A stretch of 32,000 bases of DNA from an uncultured Clostridia bacterium (GCA_947589465.1 CANQAE010000013.1:1-32000), one strand, 5' to 3'. Counted from the stretch's first letter, positions 185 to 12,788 are shown. Numbers and translations are program-made. The notes: a model not told the origin generated them from the sequence alone.

Positions 185-3100
185 ATGTCCGATTTCGAAT
201 CTTTGTACAACGAATGTCAAGCCAATGCTTTTGCCGCCGCCAAGGAAATGTTTTACGACAACAAGGTGGGGGATATAAGCGAAAAGGATTTCGGCGGCAA
301 GACGGTTATTTCCGCCGCCGTGAAAGATAGGCGCGAACATCGTACGAAGATTATTTTCGACGAGCAGGGCGGGCTTTATGACTACTCGTGCGACTGCGAA
401 GAATTCGATATGGCGAACGGACCGTGCAAACATATTATCGCCACCGCGCTTTCTTACGAGGAGAAAAATCCGCAGAGTCGGGACGAGTCAAGACGATTCA
501 TATCCGATTCGTGTGTACAGGGGCTCATAAGTTCATATGCAAAACTGCGCATAGGTCGTATTTACAGGGAAGATCCGCCCGTTAATTTGACGCCCGTGTT
601 GGGACTTATAGGCGATCTCTTGTATTTGCGGTTTACGATAGGCAAAAAAAGAGCGTACAAACTCAAAAATATCGAAGAATTTTGCGTTAATATGAGTAAC
701 GGCGCGTTCCATAGGTACGGATCGGCGCTCGCTTTCGAACATTTCGCGGACAATTTTTCTGACGAGAGCAAAAAACTCGTGGCGTTTATCGTCCGTACGG
801 TAAGAGATAAACGTAATTCGACTCACGAAGAAATCAAGGACAAGTTGTTTGTTTCGCCATCAGACCTCGACGACTTCATTGACGTTTGCGAAAACGGGCT
901 TATCGAGATCGAAGAAGGCAATGCGGGCGAGGGCGTTCGCCAGATCGTCAAACAGCCCGACGCGCTCAAAGTTCGGCTTGATATCCGCGCAGTCGAGGGG
1001 GGATGTATCGTAAAAACCAATCTCGGCACGTTCAGGACGCTGAACGGGCGACGCTATGACTACGTTCTCACTTCGAGCAGAATTTACAGGGTCACCGACG
1101 AATTCGTTTCGTCTGCGCTCAAATTGCTCGTGACGCTCAACTCGCGCGGCGAAGTTTTTATTTGCGAACGCGACATAGGAAGATTTTACAACAACGTTCT
1201 CAAAGAAGCGCGTTTTACTGACGTAAATTGCGATTTCGATTTGACGAAATACGACGTACCGCCGCTCAAAGCCTCGCTCTTTCTCGACCTCGAAGGCGAC
1301 GTCGTGCAAGGCAAACTCGAATGTTTTTACGGCGACGTCGAAACGGATATTTTCTCCGACCCCATGTACGGCGACCGCGATATCGACGCCGAGGAGAATT
1401 TGAAGGAGTGCCTTGCGCGTTACTTCCCGTATTTTCCGCACCTCGCGCTCGACGACAACGACTCTATTTACCTTCTTATGACCGACGGTTTGCGTAGCAT
1501 AGGCAGACATTGCGAGGTGTTTATGGCGGCGGCAATGCAGAAAATTTCCGTTCGAAAGCCGCCCGGAATCAAGGTTGGCGTTAAACTCAGTGCAAATCTA
1601 ATTGACCTCGACCTCTCTGCGGACGGGTATACTTACGACGAACTCGTTAGGATTATAGGCGCGGCAAAATCGAGCAAATATATAAGGCTGGGTAACGATT
1701 TCATAGATCTTACTGACCCCGGATTAAAGGCTTTGTCTAACGTTTTGGGGCTGAGCGACGGACCGCTTCCGCTCTATTACGCGCCGCATATAATAGAAGA
1801 ACTCGGCGAATATTACGAACTCGGCGACGAATGTAAAAGAAAACTCGACTTCAAACGAACGGAAGTTGCGCTTCCGGGCGAATTGAAAGAGGTATTGAGA
1901 GCATATCAGATTACGGGCGTAAAGTGGCTTACCGCCCTCAAAGAAAACGGCTTCGGCGGTATTCTCGCCGACGATATGGGACTCGGCAAAAGTTTGCAGA
2001 TAATTGCGCTCATCATGGCGCACGGACTCAAAACGATCATCGTTTGCCCGACAACGCTTATACTCAATTGGAAGAACGAGTTCGAAAAGTTCGCTCCGAA
2101 CATTAAGGTTTTGTGCGTCATGGGTGGCAGGGACGAACGCGTCGCCGTTATAGACAACGCGGACAAGGCGAACGTCGTCATCACTTCTTACGAACTCATT
2201 CGACGCGACATAGACAGTTACACGATGGACTTCGACCTTGCCGTACTCGACGAGGCGCAGTTCATAAAAAATCCCGAAACCAAAAATTCCAAAGCGGTGA
2301 AAAAACTGAAAAGCAAATACAGGTTCGCTTTGACGGGCACGCCAATCGAAAACAGCCTTGCCGAACTATGGTCTATCTTCGACTTCTTGATGCCCGGATA
2401 TCTGTTTTCTTACGGCAAGTTCAAGGAACGTTTCGAAGTGGAGATAGTGAACGGCAACAAGGACGCTGAGGCTGAACTTAGGCGGCTCGTTATGCCGTTT
2501 ATTCTCCGCAGACTCAAAGCCGAGGTGCTGAGCGAACTTCCGCCCAAGGTCGAAACTAACATTGTCGCGCCGCTTACGGGCGAGCAAGCCGATTATTACA
2601 ACGCGCATCTCGCGCTCATTCGCCGCAGTATAAAAAACCAAACGGGCATCAACAAGATCACCGTGCTTACCATGCTAACCAAACTCAGGCGCATTTGTTG
2701 CGACCCGTCACTCGAAGACAGCGCTTACAAGGGCAATTCGGCTAAACTCGAAGCGTGCTTGCAACTCGTGGACTCGGCGATAAAAGGCGGGCACAAGACG
2801 CTTATTTTTTCGCAGTTCACTTCCATGCTCGATATTATCCGCGAAAAGTTGCTCCATGCGGGCGTCACCAACTATATGCTTACGGGCGACACCCCAAAAG
2901 CCGAACGAATGAAATTCGTCAATCGGTTCAACAGGGACGACACGCAGGTGTTTTTGATATCGTTGCGCGCGGGCGGCACGGGACTTAATCTTACGGGCGC
3001 GGACGTCGTCATTCATTACGACCCATGGTGGAACCTTTCGGTCATGAATCAGGCGACGGACAGGGCGTACAGGATAGGCCAGCAAAGGTCCGTTCAGGTA

Positions 3101-3229
3101 TATTCGCTCTTGCTCGACGGCACTTTGGAGCAGAAGATAGTCGAACTTCAAAAGAGAAAAGCGGGGCTGTCGGGACTACTTGAAGGCGACAGCGCCGAAC
3201 TTTCGGAACTACTCAAACTCATCGAATGA
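185..3229 (+). CDS. SWIM zinc-finger / SNF2-family DNA-dependent ATPase (helicase-like translocase)
   Basis: 1,014-aa ORF with an AAGGAG SD at 174-179. SWIM finger C69-x-C71-x9-C81-x-H83 (SCDCEEFDMANGPCKH). SNF2 motifs present: LADDMGLGKSLQ (I), VLDEAQFIKN (II), LTGTPIENSL (III), QATDRAYRIGQ (VI). Confidence 0.93.
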   Translation: MSDFESLYNECQANAFAAAKEMFYDNKVGDISEKDFGGKTVISAAVKDRREHRTKIIFDEQGGLYDYSCDCEEFDMANGPCKHIIATALSYEEKNPQSRDESRRFISDSCVQGLISSYAKLRIGRIYREDPPVNLTPVLGLIGDLLYLRFTIGKKRAYKLKNIEEFCVNMSNGAFHRYGSALAFEHFADNFSDESKKLVAFIVRTVRDKRNSTHEEIKDKLFVSPSDLDDFIDVCENGLIEIEEGNAGEGVRQIVKQPDALKVRLDIRAVEGGCIVKTNLGTFRTLNGRRYDYVLTSSRIYRVTDEFVSSALKLLVTLNSRGEVFICERDIGRFYNNVLKEARFTDVNCDFDLTKYDVPPLKASLFLDLEGDVVQGKLECFYGDVETDIFSDPMYGDRDIDAEENLKECLARYFPYFPHLALDDNDSIYLLMTDGLRSIGRHCEVFMAAAMQKISVRKPPGIKVGVKLSANLIDLDLSADGYTYDELVRIIGAAKSSKYIRLGNDFIDLTDPGLKALSNVLGLSDGPLPLYYAPHIIEELGEYYELGDECKRKLDFKRTEVALPGELKEVLRAYQITGVKWLTALKENGFGGILADDMGLGKSLQIIALIMAHGLKTIIVCPTTLILNWKNEFEKFAPNIKVLCVMGGRDERVAVIDNADKANVVITSYELIRRDIDSYTMDFDLAVLDEAQFIKNPETKNSKAVKKLKSKYRFALTGTPIENSLAELWSIFDFLMPGYLFSYGKFKERFEVEIVNGNKDAEAELRRLVMPFILRRLKAEVLSELPPKVETNIVAPLTGEQADYYNAHLALIRRSIKNQTGINKITVLTMLTKLRRICCDPSLEDSAYKGNSAKLEACLQLVDSAIKGGHKTLIFSQFTSMLDIIREKLLHAGVTNYMLTGDTPKAERMKFVNRFNRDDTQVFLISLRAGGTGLNLTGADVVIHYDPWWNLSVMNQATDRAYRIGQQRSVQVYSLLLDGTLEQKIVELQKRKAGLSGLLEGDSAELSELLKLIE

Positions 3230-3254
3230 AAATTATTTAAGGAGAAGGATATAT

Positions 3255-5069
3255 ATGAAGAAATTCAAAGCAGAATCGCAAAGATTGTTGGAACTTATGA
3301 TCAATTCCATTTATACCAACAAGGAGATCTTTTTGCGCGAACTCATTTCCAATGCGAGCGACGCGCTCGATAAGTTGCACTTTGTGACGCTTACCGACGG
3401 AAGCGAGGACAGAAAATTCGAAATAAGACTCGAAATCGACCCCGCCGCGCGAACTTTAACCGTTCGCGACAACGGCATAGGCATGGACGAAAAAGAACTC
3501 GAAGATAATTTGGGAACGATCGCAAACAGCGGAACTTTCAAGTTCAAGGCGGACAACAAGACGGACGAAGAACTCATAGGACAATTCGGCGTCGGTTTTT
3601 ACGCATCGTTTATGGTAGCCGACAAAGTCACCGTAATAAGCAAAAAGTACGGCAGCGACTCGGCGTTTAAGTGGGAGAGTTCGGGCGCGGACGGCTATAC
3701 CGTTTCGCCCGCCGAGAGAGAAGAATGTGGCACGACCGTTATCCTCTCCCTCAAACCCGACTCCGAGGACAACGAAACGGATAATTACCTCGACGAGTGG
3801 CGCATAGAGGAATTAGTCAAAAAGTATTCCAATTACATTCGCTATCCCATAACTATGATGTGCACTTCGAAACGCAAAAAGGAGGGCAGCGACGAATACG
3901 AGGATTACACCGAACTCAGGACGCTAAACAGCCTTTTGCCGATCTGGAAGCGAAATAAAAACGAGGTCAAAAAAGAGGATTATATCGAATTTTACAAATC
4001 GACCTACTATGATATGACAGATCCGCTTCATTATTTCAGCGCTTCGACAGAGGGCGCGTTGACATATAATGCTCTTATTTACGTACCCGGCAAGGCTCCG
4101 TACGATTACTTTTCCGCCGATTACAAACGAGGACTGTCGTTGTACGCTAACGGCGTGCTTATAACCGAGAAATGCGAGGATCTTTTGCCAGATTACTTCG
4201 GATTTTTGCGCGGAGTGGTGGACAGCAGCGACCTTTCGCTCAATATCTCGCGCGAAATGCTCCAAAAGGATCGCCAACTCAAAGCGCTCGCGAACGGCAT
4301 TTGCAAGCGCATAATAAGCGAATTCGGCAAATTGCTCGCCTCGGATCGCGAAACGTATGAAAAGATCTTTTCAGAGTATGGGGCGAGCATAAAGTTCGGC
4401 GTTTACGAAAACTTCGGCGAGAAAAAGGACGAACTCAAAGATATAATTTTGTTCCGTTCATCTTCGGGCGGATACGTTACGCTCGCGGAATATGTCAAGG
4501 CTATGAAGGAAGATCAAAAGGAAATTTTGTACGCGTCGGGACGCTCCGTTGAAGCCATAGCCAAGATGCCTCAGGTAGAGGGTGCGGTCGGAAACGGCAT
4601 ACAGGTTCTCTATCTTACCGATCAGATCGACGAGTTCGTAATGAAAGTTATAGGCGAGTACGACGGCAAAAAAATAGCGCCCGTCGGTTCGTCTGCCGAG
4701 GATAAGACTGACGGCGACCTCAAAGATCTATTAGAATTTATGAAGAAGTCACTCGACGGCAAGGTCAAAGACGTAAAGGTCAATTCGGCAATAGGAAGTT
4801 ATCCGTCGTGCCTTACGGCGGAGGGCGAAGTTTCGCTCGAAATGGAACGCATACTAAATGCTATGCCAAACGGAAAAGGCGTCAAGGCTACGCGAATAAT
4901 GGAAATTAATCCATCCCATTCCGTCATTGTCAAGGCAAAGGAATTGTTAGGGGTTGACGACGACAAACTCAAAAAACTTACTGCCGTTTTGTACTGCGAA
5001 GCGTCGCTCCTCGCGGGACTCGAAGTGGACGGAGCGGAGTTCGTTCGCGACCTTAACGATCTTATTTAA
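3255..5069 (+). CDS. htpG: Molecular chaperone HtpG (bacterial Hsp90)
   Basis: Track start 3180 replaced by ATG 3255, which has a GGAGAAGGA SD at 3241-3249. Canonical Hsp90 N-terminal motifs: NKEIFLRELISNASDALDK, RDNGIGM, GQFGVGFYASFMVA. The length of about 604 aa is typical. Confidence 0.95.
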   Translation: MKKFKAESQRLLELMINSIYTNKEIFLRELISNASDALDKLHFVTLTDGSEDRKFEIRLEIDPAARTLTVRDNGIGMDEKELEDNLGTIANSGTFKFKADNKTDEELIGQFGVGFYASFMVADKVTVISKKYGSDSAFKWESSGADGYTVSPAEREECGTTVILSLKPDSEDNETDNYLDEWRIEELVKKYSNYIRYPITMMCTSKRKKEGSDEYEDYTELRTLNSLLPIWKRNKNEVKKEDYIEFYKSTYYDMTDPLHYFSASTEGALTYNALIYVPGKAPYDYFSADYKRGLSLYANGVLITEKCEDLLPDYFGFLRGVVDSSDLSLNISREMLQKDRQLKALANGICKRIISEFGKLLASDRETYEKIFSEYGASIKFGVYENFGEKKDELKDIILFRSSSGGYVTLAEYVKAMKEDQKEILYASGRSVEAIAKMPQVEGAVGNGIQVLYLTDQIDEFVMKVIGEYDGKKIAPVGSSAEDKTDGDLKDLLEFMKKSLDGKVKDVKVNSAIGSYPSCLTAEGEVSLEMERILNAMPNGKGVKATRIMEINPSHSVIVKAKELLGVDDDKLKKLTAVLYCEASLLAGLEVDGAEFVRDLNDLI

Positions 5070-5083
5070 CGGAGGGTTTCGAT

Positions 5084-5617
5084 ATGCATTTGAAGGCTAA
5101 TTTGCTGGACGAAGAAGGAGTAAAGCGCGCGCTCGTGCGCATTTCCCACGAGATCATCGAGCATAACAAAGGCGTGGATAACGTAGTGCTTGTCGGCATT
5201 AAAAGCAGAGGTATTCCCCTTGCGAAGTTCATCAAGGATACGATCTTCAAGGCGACGGGCGCCGAACTCGAAGTGGGCGAACTCGACATAGGACTATATC
5301 GCGATGACTTGACCGAAAATAACGGTCCGATTGTCAACGACGTTAATCTCAACGTGACCGTGGTCGGCAAAACAGTCATTTTGGTGGACGATGTAATGTT
5401 TACGGGTAGGACGGTCAGGGCTGCAATAGAGGCGATATTAAAGCACGGCAGAGCGTCCGCCATTCAACTTGCGGTGCTTATAGACAGGGGACACAGAGAA
5501 CTGCCGCTGAGAGCGGACTATGTGGGCAAAAACGTTCCGACGTCGAAAAGCGAAGTCGTATCGGTGAACATTCCGCCGTATGACAAAAAGATATGCGTGG
5601 ACATATATGAAATTTAG
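5084..5617 (+). CDS. pyrR: Bifunctional pyrimidine operon regulator / uracil phosphoribosyltransferase PyrR
   Basis: 177 aa, GGAGGG SD, starts 14 nt after the htpG stop. PRTase fold motif VILVDDVMFTGRTVRAA and PyrR-type tail LAVLIDRGHRELPLRADYVGKNVPTS. Confidence 0.92.
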   Translation: MHLKANLLDEEGVKRALVRISHEIIEHNKGVDNVVLVGIKSRGIPLAKFIKDTIFKATGAELEVGELDIGLYRDDLTENNGPIVNDVNLNVTVVGKTVILVDDVMFTGRTVRAAIEAILKHGRASAIQLAVLIDRGHRELPLRADYVGKNVPTSKSEVVSVNIPPYDKKICVDIYEI

Positions 5618-5621
5618 TATA

Positions 5622-5663
5622 AAAGACGGTCGTATCGAAAGGTACGGCTGTCTTTATTTTTTT
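5622..5663 (+). terminator. Rho-independent terminator after pyrR
   Basis: 13-bp stem AAAGACGGTCGTA (5622-5634) / TACGGCTGTCTTT (5643-5655) with two G-U pairs and an 8-nt loop, followed by A-TTTTTTT (5656-5663). Confidence 0.85.
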
Positions 5664-5733: not shown

Positions 5734-5762
5734 TTGACGGCGGCGCATATTAATGATATACT
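5734..5762 (+). promoter_or_regulatory. Sigma-A-type promoter of the giant gene
   Basis: TTGACG (5734-5739), 17-nt spacer, TATACT (5757-5762). A palindrome TATTCG-N6-CGAATA (5770-5787) sits just downstream. Confidence 0.55.
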
Positions 5763-5815
5763 ATGAACGTATTCGGAATTTCGAATATAATCGTCATTAA
5801 TGCGAGGAAAGATTT

Positions 5816-8800
5816 TTGAGCAATGAATTAAAAGACGTCAACAACGACGATCCCGCCCTCAACGAGAAAGAACTCGGTGGCGAAACAGATACCGAAAATA
5901 AGACCGAGCCCGAAAAGATCGAGGACTCCAACGAGAACTCGGCAAACAAAAACTCGGCAGACGGTAAAACCGCAAACGAAGTAACGGCAGACGTCAAAAC
6001 GAAGAAACAAAAAAAATTCAAAGAAAGTAAGCAAAAGAAGAAAAGAGGTTGCTTTTTTTACGGTTGTTTGTCGTTGCTCATTTTTAATTTCGTATGCGTA
6101 TGCCTGCTTATAGGCGTAGGCTGGGTCATGGGCGACCAATATTCGCGTCAATATCTCGGTATGGGACTAACCGAAACTTTTGACGTTGTGACCGGTGTAG
6201 TAAAGTCCAACGATTCGGTAGTTGATAACCCGTACGGCGAGGGCGACGAAGATAAGTTTTACGACGCGCTCGGCGACGCGTTGTTCCTGAATCATGGCGT
6301 CGTGGACGGCGACGAACTCAAAACGTACGTAACGGACGGCATAAAGAACGAGGAGGACATGGGCGCTTACATGGGCGATTATGCAGTTTCGCTGCTTACC
6401 GCCGACAACATTAATCAAGAGCGACTTGACCTTATCGACGATAATAATTTAGATACTTTCAACTTCAAGGTGACCGACAGACAACTTGCGGCTTTTTTAG
6501 ACGGCATCATAGACAGCGTCGCCGAAGATTTGCTCGTTGATATGATACTGGGTGACGATTTCGACGCGGAGAGTTACGGACTCGACGTCGAAAGTCTGCA
6601 TTTCGAAGATTATATCGCGCTCAATCAAATTACGTTGCACGTAGAAAACCGCACGGTCGGCGGCGTGTCCACGCCCGTGAATATGGCGAAATTGACGGTG
6701 TCCGTAAGTTTGCATAAGATAATAGACGAAGTTACAAAGGCTTTGGATGTAGATAAGTTCGTAGACAATCAACTTCAATCGGCGGCGTCCATGAAATCGC
6801 TCGTAAGTTTCGGGTTCGGCAGCGCGCCGGGCTTACTGAAAATGATTCTTCCCGCAACTTTCTATATCACCATAGACATGGGGCTTTCGCATAACGTCGA
6901 ACCCGATCTGTTCATAAACAATATGAACGGGGAAAAAATGACCAAACTTTATTCGCTGCTCAAAAGCACGGGACTCGATATTCAATCCGAACTCAACAAC
7001 ATATTCGTAGAAGAAGAAGGAGCCGTAAAAGAGGCTCTTGACTCTACGAACGAAATCGTTCCGCTCGGCGAAATTTTTACCGATGGCGGGATAAATTGCG
7101 ACCTGTATCAAAAAATAATAGATTTTTCGAAACTCAATTACGAACAGACGGACGAAGGCGAAAGGCTTAAACCCGAAGCGCAACGCATAACTTCGACCGA
7201 CGTTTTGAAAACTTTGCAACTCGTTTTGAGCGACAGTTCGGCATACAGAGAGCGACTTAAAAACCAAGAATACAGTTACAAGAGTTGGCAATTCAAGCAC
7301 AATGCGGACGGTGGGATAGTTATCGAAAACGGCGAACCCGCCATCGAGTTCACGCCCGAATATTACGACGTCAATTGCAAGGATATAAAGGCGCTCATAG
7401 ACGACTACAACGAACTCATATTGTCGCGTTTCAGTAACTGTTACGGCTTGAAGCGCGACGAAAATACGACGGTGGATAGCATAATCTCCGCTTTCGGAGA
7501 CGGAGAATTCGACCAAAACACCATTCTCGACCTGTTCGACGCTCAAAAGATAAAGAAAATCATAAGCGGCGACGATCCCTCCTCTCTCGTCATTGACGAC
7601 AAGATGCTCGCCGCGATTGTCATTAACCTTATGGACAGCATTAATTCCGAAGCAGGGCTTAATGACGGCGATATAGATATCGAATACATTCATATAGAAG
7701 AACGAAACAACGGCGGAGTAAAACATCATATTCTCAATGCGGGAATAAATCTCAACGTGGCTTCGATAGTTGAGTCCAAAGCGGACAACGAACTCATAAG
7801 CAAGATCGTAAAAGGACTCGCCGAAAAGTTTCTTGTGGAAGCGGCGATAGACATTACGATCGTAAACGAAGAAGATCGTGACGGCTTTAAATACGAAGAT
7901 ACAGTTCTCAGGATAAACGACAGGAGCGCGTCGGCGATAGACAAGATCCTTACGTCGCTCGGCGTGTTCGGCAGCGACGAAAACGGAGAAAACATTACCT
8001 TTACGGGCTTTATGGATTCGAGTTTGTCCACCGTGCGCGATACGATAGGCAATCTCGGCAAGTTGCCTAATTTGCAATTGCAAAGTTCGGCGCTCAAACT
8101 TCCCGATGTTTACGACGCTTTGTCTGCCGTCATTAACGGAGAAAAGACAGAGGGCGAGAAAGGTTATATCGAGCGCAATACGCTGAAAGACGCGCTGTCG
8201 CTGCTCATTAACGACGGACCGCTCGCCGACGAAAGCGCAACGAATCCTTATTCCATATACGGAGATAGCGAAGCGAATAAACAACGTTTTTCCGATTACA
8301 ATCAAAAGTGCGCAGATGCTTTGCTTGACGAACTCGGCAAGAAGTACGGACTCGATTATACGGCGGATGACGGCGAAGATTATACGCTTGCCGAAGTCCT
8401 TTATATCCTCGGCATAGGCGATACGGCTACCGAAAGGGTGCAAGACAAGGACATTTACGGTTTGCTCGGCAAAGACAAACTTTCGGCTATATCGGCTCGT
8501 GACGGCGATTGGAGCAATGACTTAAAGGTGAATATCCAAAACGTCATTTACACCGATAATAATGGTAGCGAGGGACGCGATATGCTTACCGCGCTCATAA
8601 GGCAGGTAATGTTCGCAAACGGCAATCCTTTCGAGGATCTCGGCGACGCATTGAACGAGAACAGCCTTTTGTACGTTAAACTCAGTGGCACGGGCAACAA
8701 ATTATATATGACAATAGCGGTAAAGGCGATTTTAAGCGAACTCATTCCCGCTGACGAAGAAAATTCGGCTATAACCGATTTCGTCAAGAGCCTCTTGCCG

Positions 8801-11512
8801 AATTCCCCTGCGCTCATTACGATCAAGGTAGATATTTCGCTAGGAGCGGGCGGATACGAGGACAGCGTTATTACCGTCAACAACGATCAAGAGAGCAGTA
8901 GTTCGCTTTTGAAACTTCTCGACGATCTCAATATAAATCTCGAACTCGACAGCATAGGAGATAAGGTCCGTGAAGCGGTAGACAATTTGCGCGGCAACGA
9001 CCAAGTGGATATCGAACTCGGCGCGGACGGAATAAAGATAGACAATCTTTTCGAAGTCGTAAGCACGAAAATGGCAAAGGGCGAAGAAACAGATCTTTCG
9101 GCAGACGACGTTAAATTTTTGATGGATTCGCTACTCAATTCGAACATGATCACGCCCGACAAGGAGAACGACTTCCGCAATTGGTACTACGGTAGCGCGA
9201 GCGACAAGAGCGAAAGCGGTTGGGTATACGGTTCGGGCAAAGCCGATCCCGATCTTGCCATAGACTTCGGCGAAAAACTCAACGAGGACTTGCTCCGCGC
9301 TTATGCGTTAAAGACAATGAGCGACGCGGGCAAGGAATATACTTTGACTGATACTATGTCGCTGTTCGGACTCGGTTCGGGCGACAGCACGGACGAATTT
9401 ATCGACCGTATTGACAAGACGGCGCTCGAAGAAAAGGTGTTCAACGAACTCGAAGATCTCAATGTGGACAATCGCAGACTCGGTGCGCTCGTAATAAGCA
9501 ACTTTGGTGACTTCATAGGCGGCGCGGAAGATATTACTGCGGAAGATATCTTGTATGTCGCAATAAGCAAAAATGGCGCGGACAGTTTGCTTACGGTCGC
9601 GGTAAAAATTTCCGTTTCGGAGAAGATAGCGGTGGGCGACGTACAACAATTCCAAAGTTTGTTGCCCGAATTTGCGACCGCGACGGTAACGATAGATATA
9701 ACAAAAGGCAAGACTGTATATGCGAACACGGTTATCGAATATAACAATTTAGGCGATAAGACGAACGATCTTCTCGATATCATTCGAAGGATAAGCGACG
9801 TGCAACTCGATTTCAACGATGTTGCCGCTTCGGTAAGAAATGCGCTTAATAATCTCGGCGACACCGTAGATGTGACTTACGGCGAGAATGCGCTCGTTCT
9901 TCCCAATCTGTTTTCGGTTATGAACGACGTTTTGTTTGAGAACTTGTACGAGGAAAAAGGCGACGAAAAGATCCAATCGGCGCTTCGCGGAGTGTATGCT
10001 TCGAGCGAAACCGAAATTACTGACGACGGCGAAAATATGACGCGCGCAGAACAATACAAGAAACAGAAAATAACTCCGTCTATTCAAAGCGGTAAGGCGT
10101 TTGCGCCAAATAAGGATTACATCGGCTTTATGAACGAAATAAAGGATAAGTACTTCCTCCAAGGCACGCTTGCTTCGATTAATGACTTCGATTCCCTGTA
10201 TGAACAAATTAAGATAGACGATTTCAATGCCGCAGATATAAACATAAGCGACGAGAACGGACTTGCGTATACGACCCGCAAAATCAAAGGCGAAAATGAC
10301 AGCGACAGGGAGAACGATCTCACGCCGATCATGTCTTACGGAGATCTCGGCGCAGTCCTGAAAGATCATATGACCTCCGACATGAATGTCGAAATCCTTT
10401 CGATCGAAGTTTCCGAAAGGGGAGCGAAAAAACTTGTTATGAACGTTTCGATAGCGCTTGACGAATTGTTCAAAGACAAGGGCGATATGTCGAAAATCAT
10501 AAGCGTTAAAAAATTATTCGCAAAAATAGTAACCGACCTCAATACGGCGACAGACAATTCGTATAAGACTGTCGTAACCCTTAACGATATGAAAGATGAG
10601 CAACAAAAGACGCTAAAAGACATCATAGGCAAGTTCGGCGCAACGGGCGGCGACGCCGATATTGCCGATCTCGAAAGGAAGATAGGCGAGGCGGTCTACG
10701 ATGCGTTCGGCGTTTTGGATGCGGCATATAAAGACAATTACGAAATTCACGAGGGCGGAATAGAGTTTTGTGACATTTTTACATTCATAGGCAAAAACGC
10801 AATCGGAATGGAAACGGAATACGAAGGGGACGATATAAGAGCGGCTTTGCAGGGAATGTACGAGGCGAAGAACGGTGACAATGCGAACAACAATGAAAAC
10901 AACTATGTTGTCGATAAGATCATACGAAACCCCGTTACTACAAAGCCGTCGATAACAACTACGTTGGACGATGCTCAGTTCGGTGCGACGGTAAAAGAGT
11001 CTATAGGCGAAGTCGGCACGCTCGAACAATTAAGTATTCTCACAAAGTCGCCGTCGGCTTCCTCCAATCAAACGGAGGACAGAAAAATCCTCGATGAACT
11101 CGGCTATACGCTCACGAACGAAAATACGTATATTCTGGTTACGTTAAAAGCGGACATTAATAAGATGAGCGGCGAAACGGAATGGAGCGGGAGCAACAAC
11201 GGAAAGGCGATTTTGCCCAATGATATGTACTTGACTTTTATCCTCAAATACAATGAGGATACGAAACAATTCGATTACGAAAATTTCGTACTCAACAATA
11301 TGACGAATGACACCCTAACCGTGCTCCTGAAATTGACGGGCATAGGTAACGCAAGCGAAAATATCGCTGCCAATGCGGATATCTGCCTCAATAAAATCAA
11401 CGAAGCACTAACAACCGTTTCGTTGGTTCCGGGAATAACGACAAATTATCATTTCGAAGAAAATACTTCTATGGGTTCCAAAATTCGCGGAAAGATCGTG
11501 TACGAAAACTGA
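5816..11512 (+). CDS. Giant (1,898 aa) N-terminally membrane-anchored, highly acidic repeat protein; no family recognised
   Basis: Uninterrupted 5.7-kb ORF with a TTG start at 5816 and a GAGGAAAG SD at 5804-5811. The first in-frame Met is residue 105, after the membrane span. K/E/N-rich N-terminus ends in KKQKKFKESKQKKKRG, followed by one hydrophobic span (aa 79-106, nt 6050-6133) and about 1,790 D/E/N-rich residues. It has its own promoter and terminator. Confidence 0.85.
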   Translation: MSNELKDVNNDDPALNEKELGGETDTENKTEPEKIEDSNENSANKNSADGKTANEVTADVKTKKQKKFKESKQKKKRGCFFYGCLSLLIFNFVCVCLLIGVGWVMGDQYSRQYLGMGLTETFDVVTGVVKSNDSVVDNPYGEGDEDKFYDALGDALFLNHGVVDGDELKTYVTDGIKNEEDMGAYMGDYAVSLLTADNINQERLDLIDDNNLDTFNFKVTDRQLAAFLDGIIDSVAEDLLVDMILGDDFDAESYGLDVESLHFEDYIALNQITLHVENRTVGGVSTPVNMAKLTVSVSLHKIIDEVTKALDVDKFVDNQLQSAASMKSLVSFGFGSAPGLLKMILPATFYITIDMGLSHNVEPDLFINNMNGEKMTKLYSLLKSTGLDIQSELNNIFVEEEGAVKEALDSTNEIVPLGEIFTDGGINCDLYQKIIDFSKLNYEQTDEGERLKPEAQRITSTDVLKTLQLVLSDSSAYRERLKNQEYSYKSWQFKHNADGGIVIENGEPAIEFTPEYYDVNCKDIKALIDDYNELILSRFSNCYGLKRDENTTVDSIISAFGDGEFDQNTILDLFDAQKIKKIISGDDPSSLVIDDKMLAAIVINLMDSINSEAGLNDGDIDIEYIHIEERNNGGVKHHILNAGINLNVASIVESKADNELISKIVKGLAEKFLVEAAIDITIVNEEDRDGFKYEDTVLRINDRSASAIDKILTSLGVFGSDENGENITFTGFMDSSLSTVRDTIGNLGKLPNLQLQSSALKLPDVYDALSAVINGEKTEGEKGYIERNTLKDALSLLINDGPLADESATNPYSIYGDSEANKQRFSDYNQKCADALLDELGKKYGLDYTADDGEDYTLAEVLYILGIGDTATERVQDKDIYGLLGKDKLSAISARDGDWSNDLKVNIQNVIYTDNNGSEGRDMLTALIRQVMFANGNPFEDLGDALNENSLLYVKLSGTGNKLYMTIAVKAILSELIPADEENSAITDFVKSLLPNSPALITIKVDISLGAGGYEDSVITVNNDQESSSSLLKLLDDLNINLELDSIGDKVREAVDNLRGNDQVDIELGADGIKIDNLFEVVSTKMAKGEETDLSADDVKFLMDSLLNSNMITPDKENDFRNWYYGSASDKSESGWVYGSGKADPDLAIDFGEKLNEDLLRAYALKTMSDAGKEYTLTDTMSLFGLGSGDSTDEFIDRIDKTALEEKVFNELEDLNVDNRRLGALVISNFGDFIGGAEDITAEDILYVAISKNGADSLLTVAVKISVSEKIAVGDVQQFQSLLPEFATATVTIDITKGKTVYANTVIEYNNLGDKTNDLLDIIRRISDVQLDFNDVAASVRNALNNLGDTVDVTYGENALVLPNLFSVMNDVLFENLYEEKGDEKIQSALRGVYASSETEITDDGENMTRAEQYKKQKITPSIQSGKAFAPNKDYIGFMNEIKDKYFLQGTLASINDFDSLYEQIKIDDFNAADINISDENGLAYTTRKIKGENDSDRENDLTPIMSYGDLGAVLKDHMTSDMNVEILSIEVSERGAKKLVMNVSIALDELFKDKGDMSKIISVKKLFAKIVTDLNTATDNSYKTVVTLNDMKDEQQKTLKDIIGKFGATGGDADIADLERKIGEAVYDAFGVLDAAYKDNYEIHEGGIEFCDIFTFIGKNAIGMETEYEGDDIRAALQGMYEAKNGDNANNNENNYVVDKIIRNPVTTKPSITTTLDDAQFGATVKESIGEVGTLEQLSILTKSPSASSNQTEDRKILDELGYTLTNENTYILVTLKADINKMSGETEWSGSNNGKAILPNDMYLTFILKYNEDTKQFDYENFVLNNMTNDTLTVLLKLTGIGNASENIAANADICLNKINEALTTVSLVPGITTNYHFEENTSMGSKIRGKIVYEN

Positions 11513-11693: not shown

Positions 11694-11734
11694 AAAGCGT
11701 TTCATGAGGCATATGCCCATGAAACGCTTTTAAG
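11694..11734. terminator. Bidirectional rho-independent terminator shared by the giant gene and the convergent lipoprotein gene
   Basis: Near-perfect 37-nt palindrome AAAGCGTTTCATG-a-GGCATATGCC-CATGAAACGCTTT (11694-11730). It is flanked by AAAAAAA upstream (a U-run for the minus-strand transcript) and TTTTAA downstream. Confidence 0.8.
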
Positions 11735-11745
11735 GTTAATGAGTT

Positions 11746-12720
11746 TTATCGAACATTATCGAGTGTATAGATATTCGTATATTGTATGCCCGAAAAAGTA
11801 GAGGTTTCGTAACTTTTCATTTTGACGAGCATAAGCGAACTTATGTCGGGGTTACTGCTCTCGCGGTTTTTGTAGTACTTGCCCGCCGCGTACGAAGCAT
11901 ACAAATTTAATCCCGGTTTGTTGCCTTGCAAACTGAGCCTTGTGTCGTAGCAAACGATTTTGCCTGTTTCGGGGTCGCTTTCGTCGAAGTTGCCGATAAA
12001 GTCGGACGCCGAAACCGAAACGCCACGCGCCATTGAACAGTTAGCCGTCCAATCGGTCGCGAAAAACTTGTTTGCCGCAAAACATTCATACCAATTCACG
12101 ATGCTGAAATTTTGACTGAGAGAGCCGTTGATATTTCCGTCCTTTACTTTGAGAGCGTCAAGACCTTCGAACGCGCGCACGTAATACATCATATATTCGT
12201 TGTCAATGTAACTGCCTTCGAATTTGAGTTGACGGTCGCCTTTATTGTCAGTATATTTGGCTTCGCCCTTGTTGTAATCGACTTCGAAACTGTACGATAA
12301 GTCGGGAGTGGTTTGAAGTACGACCTCCTTTTTCGAATATACGGCGTACAAATTTGCCGCGGTAAATTCGACTGTTGAAGTTATTGTGTCAGTTTTGCCC
12401 GCAAAGTCGGGTCTTTCGCCACGGTATGTCAGCGAGAACTCGGTACTGAGGACGTACGAAGTTTCGTTGTTTTCGAGTTTGTTTTCGAGCGTCGTCTTGT
12501 AAGTTCCCTCCGCGGTGACTATCGGTTGCGTGTCGGTGGAAATGTCGGGATCGTAATCGCCCGCATATTGCGTCACAACGTACTCGCAAGTTTCACTTTG
12601 AAAACCTATATAACTCCACGGCAACAAGGTCTTTATTGCGGGGACGACAGGTTGAGCGCAGGCTACGCAACACAGCGTAATGCTCAAAACCGAGATAATT
12701 ACTGTAAAAAGTTTTTTCAT
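11746..12720 (-). CDS. Secreted protein or lipoprotein of unknown function
   Basis: Track start 12771 replaced by ATG 12720, with a GGAGAAG SD just upstream on the minus strand. The N-terminus MKKLFTVIISVLSITLCCVACAQP is a signal peptide with Cys residues in a lipobox-like position. The mature part is rich in T/S/Y/N and looks beta-rich. No motif recognised. Confidence 0.75.
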   Translation of the reverse strand: MKKLFTVIISVLSITLCCVACAQPVVPAIKTLLPWSYIGFQSETCEYVVTQYAGDYDPDISTDTQPIVTAEGTYKTTLENKLENNETSYVLSTEFSLTYRGERPDFAGKTDTITSTVEFTAANLYAVYSKKEVVLQTTPDLSYSFEVDYNKGEAKYTDNKGDRQLKFEGSYIDNEYMMYYVRAFEGLDALKVKDGNINGSLSQNFSIVNWYECFAANKFFATDWTANCSMARGVSVSASDFIGNFDESDPETGKIVCYDTRLSLQGNKPGLNLYASYAAGKYYKNRESSNPDISSLMLVKMKSYETSTFSGIQYTNIYTLDNVR

Positions 12721-12759
12721 TTTACTTCTCCAAACGAATTTTTTATTTCGATTGCGATA

Positions 12760-12788
12760 AGTGTACCACATTTTAGTTGATTTGGCAA
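12760..12788 (-). promoter_or_regulatory. Sigma-A-type promoter of the secreted-protein gene
   Basis: On the minus strand: TTGCCA (12788-12783), 17-nt spacer, TGgTACACT extended -10 (hexamer 12765-12760). It lies 40 nt upstream of the ATG at 12720. Confidence 0.5.

Follow-up and report, generated by a model that had tools for sequence, protein, structure and literature searches.

Six diverged copies of an undescribed domain, possibly of a new fold, in a giant predicted envelope protein of Clostridia

We analysed a stretch of 32,000 nucleotides from an uncultured Clostridia bacterium (GCA_947589465.1, CANQAE010000013.1:1-32000; hereafter the window), which carries on its plus strand a giant open reading frame (ORF; 5816..11512, TTG start) of 1,898 residues. 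Most of its product consists of six serial, highly diverged modules, M1 to M6 from the N-terminus. The protein family to which it belongs and its domain of ~200 residues match no described family. This is thus a new domain family, and possibly a new fold.

Six copies of a two-part module, conserved at the amino-acid level only, had been proposed from a reading of the translation. This original prediction was upheld by self-comparison, by leave-one-out hidden Markov models (HMMs) and by an HMM of the module at the family level. All of its motifs (31 of 31 strings) lie at the residues it gave when the ORF is translated from the TTG start. The spacing of the opening motifs (374, 325, 299, 289 and 211 residues, with 180 residues after the last) bears out the proposed shrinkage of the unit toward the C-terminus. 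At the DNA level just four short matches were found, which is the chance level, as expected from the claim that the repeat is absent there. When the protein was compared with itself by hhalign, with no boundaries given, residues 525-1397 aligned with residues 822-1685 over 790 columns (probability 98.8%, expectation value (E) 1.2e-16). The internal periodicity is significant and in register: the shift in this alignment is one unit, and a shift of two units was found at E 2e-4. Weaker matches between M1 and M2, M1 and M6, and M5 and M6, each in register, tie the first and the last modules to the rest. Pairwise hhalign on alignments of orthologs gave probabilities of 97% for M3-M4, 92% for M2-M3 and 84% for M4-M5, the same three pairs that are the only significant ones in plain BLAST among the six segments (E 5e-13, 1e-4 and 0.002, respectively).

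One might argue that in a protein of biased composition short amphipathic motifs recur by chance and give the look of a repeat, and pairwise BLAST of M1 or M6 against the other modules is indeed weak (E 0.05 or worse). Yet the self-comparison given above speaks against it, and so does a strict leave-one-module-out test, in which the training modules were re-aligned without the held-out one and the score was compared with those of 1,000 shuffles. None of the shuffles matched the observed score for M1 to M5; eight of 1,000 did for M6 of the window, and none of 1,000 for the M6 ortholog of P0003, a 35%-identical relative. An iterated HMM of the module found 377 modules in 109 related proteins and none in shuffled decoys, and the order of secondary-structure elements is alike in the models of M1 and M2. 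With the self-comparison, the shuffle tests and the decoy search all opposed to it, we rejected the chance explanation, to which we give practically no credit. The repeat is genuine, and the copy that has eroded most is M6.

The second part of the unit is a helical connector, and this element of the original prediction is correct at four of the five junctions, since the connectors align with one another and the link between M5 and M6 lacks the motif. Across the family the modules sort into four position-specific classes. M1 (6449..7240, plus strand like all features of the protein; residues 212-475) belongs to class 1 and is enlarged by a helical insertion between strands b2 and b3. It is followed by connector 1 (7241..7570; residues 476-585), with the helical motif 'YNELILSRFSNCYGL..SIISAFGDGE'. 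M2 (7571..8218; residues 586-801), the module that we modelled singly, is of class 2, and connector 2 (8219..8545; residues 802-910) carries the motif 'YNQKCADALLDELGKKYGL..YTLAEVLYILGIGD'. M3 (8546..9148; residues 911-1111) is an extra middle module that could be assigned to class 2 or to class 3; connector 3 (9149..9442; residues 1112-1209) follows it, with 'FGEKLNEDLLRAYAL..YTLTDTMSLFGLGSGD'. M4 (9443..10009; residues 1210-1398) is also extra and class-2-like, its closest paralog being M3 (32% identity in the BLAST match given above). Connector 4 (10010..10309; residues 1399-1498) is the equivalent of connector 2 of the family: its helical piece at residue 1438, 'FMNEIKDKYFLQG', fits the connector-2 consensus 'y..Fi..v.dkYYL'. 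M5 (10310..10873; residues 1499-1686) is a canonical class 3 module. The short linker that comes next (10874..10942; residues 1687-1709) is without the connector motif, so that a helical connector follows the first four units only. The array ends with M6 (10943..11509; residues 1710-1898), a canonical module of class 4, the terminal class, which is cut short compared with the module model and evolves the fastest. In the window, connector 1 aligns with connector 2, and connector 2 with connector 3, at E about 9e-4; for the family as a whole the alignment of connectors 1 and 2 has E 3e-5 (73% probability), and their shared motif reads 'e.eFv.Ei..KY.Ld…t..dil.lfGi' in the former and as the consensus just given in the latter.

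The array follows an N-terminal membrane anchor, in agreement with the proposal that the modules are the ectodomain of the protein. A low-complexity tail, presumably cytoplasmic (5816..6046; residues 1-77), ends in a poly-Lys run and then a Cys cluster, and gives way to the sole transmembrane helix (6047..6130; residues 78-105), which is strongly conserved in the family. Only one hydrophobic segment was found (residues 77-107), with the poly-Lys on its N-terminal side. By the positive-inside rule, the protein is predicted to be a single-pass membrane protein with its N-terminus inside and its C-terminus outside. Between the membrane and M1 lies a membrane-adjoining helical domain, or N-domain (6131..6448; residues 106-211), and this domain and the transmembrane helix are the best-conserved part of the family. 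The ectodomain of ~1,790 residues is very acidic, with an isoelectric point (pI) of 4.27 (family median 4.29) and a net charge of about -160, and it is nearly free of Cys (0.3%). The Cys cluster itself, 'KKKRGCFFYGC…CVC' (6029-6106; residues 72-97), sits directly after the poly-Lys at the cytoplasmic edge of the transmembrane helix. It is kept across the family (median of 4 Cys, consensus 'KKK…CC.CC') and could be a site of lipidation, metal binding or oligomerisation.

The original prediction had suggested modelling one module to see whether it is a new fold, and the outcome is a confident model without a significant structural match in the PDB. AlphaFold2, run on residues 106-800 with 64 family sequences, gave a predicted local distance difference test score (pLDDT) of 86.9 and a predicted template modelling score (pTM) of 0.79, with no low-confidence segment over the two modules and their connector. 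M2 alone, with 42 orthologous modules, gave a pLDDT of 88.7. The elements succeed one another alike in both modelled modules: first a short strand, next a helix of 18-24 residues and a hairpin with strands of 12-15 residues, then two helices (three in M1), strand b3 ('LLPE..VDIT'), strand b4 ('I.ND'), and a helical sub-domain with a small hairpin. In the predicted core, the long twisted beta-hairpin and two more strands cradle the short strand and the long helix, and the order given by DSSP is b0-a1-b1-b2-(aa)-b3-b4. The four motifs noted earlier in each copy correspond to b0/a1, b2, b3, and b4 with its following helix. The residues conserved in all classes are TD at the start of the helix, LP, D.T, ND, VRDAL and LPDVF. 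We infer that they are structural (helix caps, LP turns, strand residues) and not catalytic.

Searches for known relatives returned no significant match in Pfam, NCBIfam, the PDB or by Foldseek, and the module does not map cleanly onto any characterised family. In Pfam and NCBIfam nothing rose above noise, whether the query was the protein, a module, one of 13 full-length relatives or one of 10 short ones, and no enzymatic or other known domain was found in the giant protein or the 13 full-length relatives. DUF5797 and SAVED came up weakly (E 0.004-0.26), without recurrence, and were discarded. Among the sequences of the PDB, the family profile retrieved nothing below E 0.49. Foldseek found no match in the PDB at E 0.001 or better for either model (best E 0.24 for the two-module model) and none that was significant among the viral structures of BFVD (best E 0.056). 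AsmA-like and bridge-like transporters such as TamB and YhdP were discarded as relatives, there being no match in Pfam or NCBIfam, Chorein-N and AsmA profiles included, and the modelled modules being mixed alpha/beta and helix-rich where these transporters have a continuous all-beta groove.

The top-ranked, non-significant Foldseek match of the single module is SPLUNC1/BPIFA1 (E 0.17, TM-score 0.22), and the next ones, equally non-significant, are cystatins, PITP-alpha, Der f 7 and LAGLIDADG enzymes (E 0.3-1.5). Like the modelled module, SPLUNC1/BPIFA1 (PDB 4kgo, 6baq) and the cystatin-like rolls pack a long helix against a long curved antiparallel sheet. The module runs strand, helix and then four strands, and its DSSP order fits the topology of a cystatin-like roll, the cystatin matches themselves reaching only E 0.3-1.4 and TMt 0.31-0.41 (0.36-0.41 when normalised to the small cystatins). 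What sets the module apart is a pair of helices inserted after b2 and before b3, and a helical sub-domain of about 100 residues at its C-terminal end. The recurrence of weak BPI-fold and cystatin-like matches would fit a roll with a helix in a curved sheet, and we take this faint resemblance between models and structures as a lead, not as a classification.

The original prediction had also seen in the opening motif and the strands a vague likeness to the small membrane-anchored Firmicute proteins of the YpmS/DUF2140 kind, and here it did not hold. Even with E allowed up to 10, neither the whole protein nor any of its six modules nor the 42 orthologous modules matched PF09911. We took seven DUF2140 sequences from the supplement of PMC6791001, three of which were confirmed as PF09911 (E 1e-46 to 1e-55), and aligned the profile of their ectodomains with the alignment of 377 modules. 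The match by hhalign, from a small profile run without secondary-structure scoring, had a probability of 0.4% and E 0.15 over 23 columns. They coincide precisely with the opening strand and helix to which the original prediction had pointed, and no similarity was found across the ectodomain of roughly 150 residues. Membership of DUF2140 was hence rejected. There are some likenesses: both are proteins of Firmicutes with an N-terminal membrane anchor and a domain predicted to face outward, and in both the first elements are a short strand and then an amphipathic helix ('FTi.t.K..LN.li' in DUF2140, '..itD..l.a.i' in the module). Yet DUF2140 is a single, mostly beta domain of about 200 residues, whereas the giant protein has 1,898 residues in six alpha/beta modules with helical sub-domains. 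The common anchoring and opening motif are best described as an analogy. Levine 2019 (PMC6791001) predicted that DUF2140 is a lipid-binding domain of the TULIP kind, anchored on the outside of monoderm cells, and a 2026 study tied ypmS to capsule shedding in Group B Streptococcus, with no mechanism given (PMC13537807).

These resemblances raise the question of whether the modules are highly diverged TULIP/BPI-like lipid-binding domains, as in YpmS/DUF2140, whose array would shuttle or channel lipids or other hydrophobic molecules between the membrane and the surface. The anchoring and location of the protein match those of DUF2140, itself predicted to be a TULIP domain (PMC6791001), and the opening strand-helix motifs of the two align. 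In the model, the core consists of a long helix with long antiparallel strands around it, and in the non-significant Foldseek ranking that is headed by SPLUNC1/BPIFA1, Der f 7 and PITP-alpha stand within the top 15. The non-significant matches of the two-module model include Aha1-N, which shares a SCOP fold with BPI. Yet E is 0.17 or worse and the TM-scores are about 0.2, so that no significant structural match to the TULIP superfamily (BPI, SMP, Takeout, YceB, P47) was found. The PDB holds structures of YceB, P47, Takeout, BPI, CETP and SMP, but none of these is among the 50 best Foldseek matches listed. Moreover, no Pfam TULIP family appears in the weak matches of the 42 modules, the hhalign probability against DUF2140 is 0.4% over 23 columns, and the module is helix-rich after strand b2 while DUF2140 is nearly all beta. 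The literature was also searched for Gram-positive proteins with TULIP domains in tandem, and yielded nothing of relevance. We regard a relay of TULIP domains as distinctly unlikely. Less probable still, and proposed here as a speculation, is that the module represents a new fold-level class of extracellular domain binding hydrophobic ligands, whose stacked modules, on their membrane anchor, would lead through the thick wall of these monoderm bacteria as a conduit or relay.

How far does the family extend? Homolog searches based on a word index, whose list of candidates was saturated, returned three relatives with the whole protein and five with the 64-sequence alignment. HMMER, run without an index on 1.84 billion representative proteins with a family profile built from residues 80-1210, found 114 clusters, 96 of them at E 1e-10 or better. 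None of the 114 came with a name. Most are 1,200-1,300 residues long, a typical member having four modules in about 1,250 residues, and the weakest matches cover the transmembrane helix and the N-domain only. Among the proteins in which the module HMM found its 377 matches, the commonest count is four and the maximum six. The architecture 1-2-3-4 occurs in 48 full-length clusters, 1-2-2-3-4 in eight, 1-2-3-2-4 in two and 1-2-3-3-3-3 in one; the window protein and two close relatives make up the three clusters with 1-2-(2/3)-2-3-4. These architectures show that the end modules are fixed and that the middle ones were duplicated, independently in different lineages. The ancestral form had four position-specific modules (1-2-3-4), and the lineage of the window gained two middle modules and their connectors by internal duplication, six being a rare maximum. 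P0003 lacks exactly one unit, corresponding to residues 1039-1334 of the window protein. P0086, a protein of 2,197 residues from an NCBI metagenome-assembled genome (MAG), reached six modules by another route (1-2-3-3-3-3); it lacks the class 4 terminal module, and its C-terminus is longer by about 200 residues. In the Clostridiales MAG HAN094 (locus L005, 5722-8706) the homologous ORF ends at 994 residues, and no same-strand ORF of at least 120 residues is listed between it and the end of the contig. This short homolog may result from a frameshift or an assembly error, or it may be a truncated gene. The three matching genomes in GTDB are MAGs of Lachnospiraceae, Clostridia and Clostridiales, and one of them comes from sheep colon.

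A 96%-identical ortholog in a MAG assembly, with the gene order of the window, gave access to selection on the gene. Against this ortholog the ratio of nonsynonymous to synonymous substitution rates (dN/dS) of the giant ORF is 0.21 overall. It is maximal in M6 (0.34), and dN is 0 in the transmembrane helix and the membrane-adjoining domain. The gene is thus real and constrained, under a purifying selection that is graded from the membrane outwards.

The reading that we favour is a non-enzymatic scaffold or binding stalk that spans the wall. Taken as a whole, architecture included, we hold this statement to be somewhat more probable than its negation; the architecture by itself is near certain and the function weakly founded. 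The high pTM across two units and their connector suggests a continuous stalk, in which the units would pack through the connectors into one elongated, fairly rigid, membrane-anchored structure. With six units it would be long enough to cross a monoderm wall. The invariance of the transmembrane helix and the N-domain suggests a membrane partner or self-assembly: these parts might dock to such a partner or associate with themselves. At the other end, the fast-evolving last module would be exposed at the surface. Because the residues conserved in all classes look structural, the modules are most likely non-enzymatic spacer or binding units; a putative hydrophobic or amphipathic ligand might be held between helix and sheet. 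Several observations weigh against this reading. We infer the rod-like packing from the high pTM alone. Ancient, position-specific modules are not what typical adhesin stalks, with their near-identical repeats, are made of. All known members of this rare family come from metagenome assemblies. Finally, no operon partner is shared across eight loci, where the neighbours are housekeeping genes that vary by lineage, and no gene neighbour that would point to a membrane partner is conserved across the family.

The protein might instead be a surface adhesin or fibre, with passive stalk modules that hold the distal C-terminal module off the cell to bind host or partner surfaces. It would then resemble Ebh/Embp and the Rib/SHIRT-type stalks, the giant repeat adhesins of Gram-positive bacteria, which are also very large acidic extracellular proteins with a variable number of serial modules. 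Indeed, the number of modules varies from four to six by lineage through independent expansions, the fastest evolution is that of the distal module, the ectodomain is acidic with hardly any Cys, and two of the three genome records with a relative are animal-associated (the sheep colon and the Lachnospiraceae MAG). But the giant protein has an N-terminal transmembrane anchor and not an LPXTG motif, which was not found in it, and it lacks any other sortase signal and any known adhesive or wall-binding domain. Its repeats are ancient, dissimilar in DNA and position-specific, where homogenised ones would be expected of an adhesin. The conservation of the transmembrane helix and its adjoining region above all else is unusual for a passive anchor, and the gene sits among housekeeping genes rather than in a variable island. 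We therefore consider an adhesin unlikely, and rejected in particular the class of sortase-anchored repeat adhesins, for want of LPXTG and of a DNA-level repeat.

For the proposed wall-spanning stalk, the closest parallels of organisation are LetB/PqiB, with MCE domains, and BamA/FtsQ, with POTRA domains, which are envelope proteins built of ancient, position-specific tandem domains. As in the giant family, one anchor or N-terminal module is followed by serial copies of one fold at low identity, each position is orthologous across species, and the copy number depends on the lineage. The folds, in contrast, are unrelated, with no match in sequence or structure to the giant protein, and these systems are part of diderm envelopes or of the machinery of division, whereas the giant family is found in monoderm Clostridia.

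The giant gene looks monocistronic, because it has its own promoter-like site and because a strong terminator closes pyrR upstream. This terminator-like hairpin (5622..5655, plus strand), with a 15-bp stem and a T-run, sets the gene apart from its upstream neighbour. It is followed by a sigma-70-like putative promoter with an extended -10 (5734..5762, plus strand), a consensus match only, in which TTGACG is separated by 17 nt from TATACT preceded by TG. The promoter lies ~54 nt upstream of the start codon, and a Shine-Dalgarno sequence, GAGGA (5804..5808, plus strand), lies 7 nt upstream of the TTG. The context is that of an ordinary chromosomal housekeeping region. Upstream, in order, are genes for an SNF2 helicase, HtpG and PyrR; downstream are a convergent ORF, AddB and AddA. 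The helicase (185-3229, plus strand; 1,014 residues) carries SWIM and SNF2_assoc domains, and its best NCBIfam match is the 'pilus expression-regulating Snf2 family helicase', at 450 bits for a cutoff of 1,100. The ORF of HtpG (3180-5069, plus strand; 629 residues as called, TTG start) overlaps the helicase gene by 50 nt. Its ortholog at locus L001 was called at 604 residues, and the true start is hence probably ~25 codons downstream. The pyrR gene (5084-5617) is followed by the terminator and the giant gene, not by genes of pyr biosynthesis, and an Rfam search of the whole 32 kb found no PyrR-binding leader and no other RNA family. The convergent ORF (11746-12771, minus strand; 341 residues) has no Pfam match; its signal-peptide-like start, 'MKKLFTVIISVLSITLCCVACAQP', suggests a lipoprotein. 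At loci L001 and L004 a gene for 317-324 residues, similarly oriented, stands between the giant gene and addB, the correspondence being one of size, orientation and position only. A 15-bp hairpin with T-runs (11694-11730), called as the terminator of the minus-strand ORF, separates the two convergent genes and may act in both directions.

The present result is a well-delimited domain of unknown function and not a mechanistic discovery. It adds a domain of about 200 residues that is absent from Pfam, NCBIfam and the PDB, together with confident models and a clear evolutionary history of four ancient modules whose middle members were gained repeatedly and independently. If the faint BPI-like resemblance were to reflect real lipid binding, it would bear on how hydrophobic molecules are transported across the monoderm wall, and a conduit, if true, would give Gram-positive bacteria an equivalent of the lipid transport systems, bridge-like or spanning the periplasm, that diderm bacteria and eukaryotes possess. 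Hardly any work exists on large envelope proteins in gut Clostridia. A conserved membrane-anchored stalk, possibly spanning the wall, offers a handle on how these bacteria organise their envelope or reach into their surroundings.

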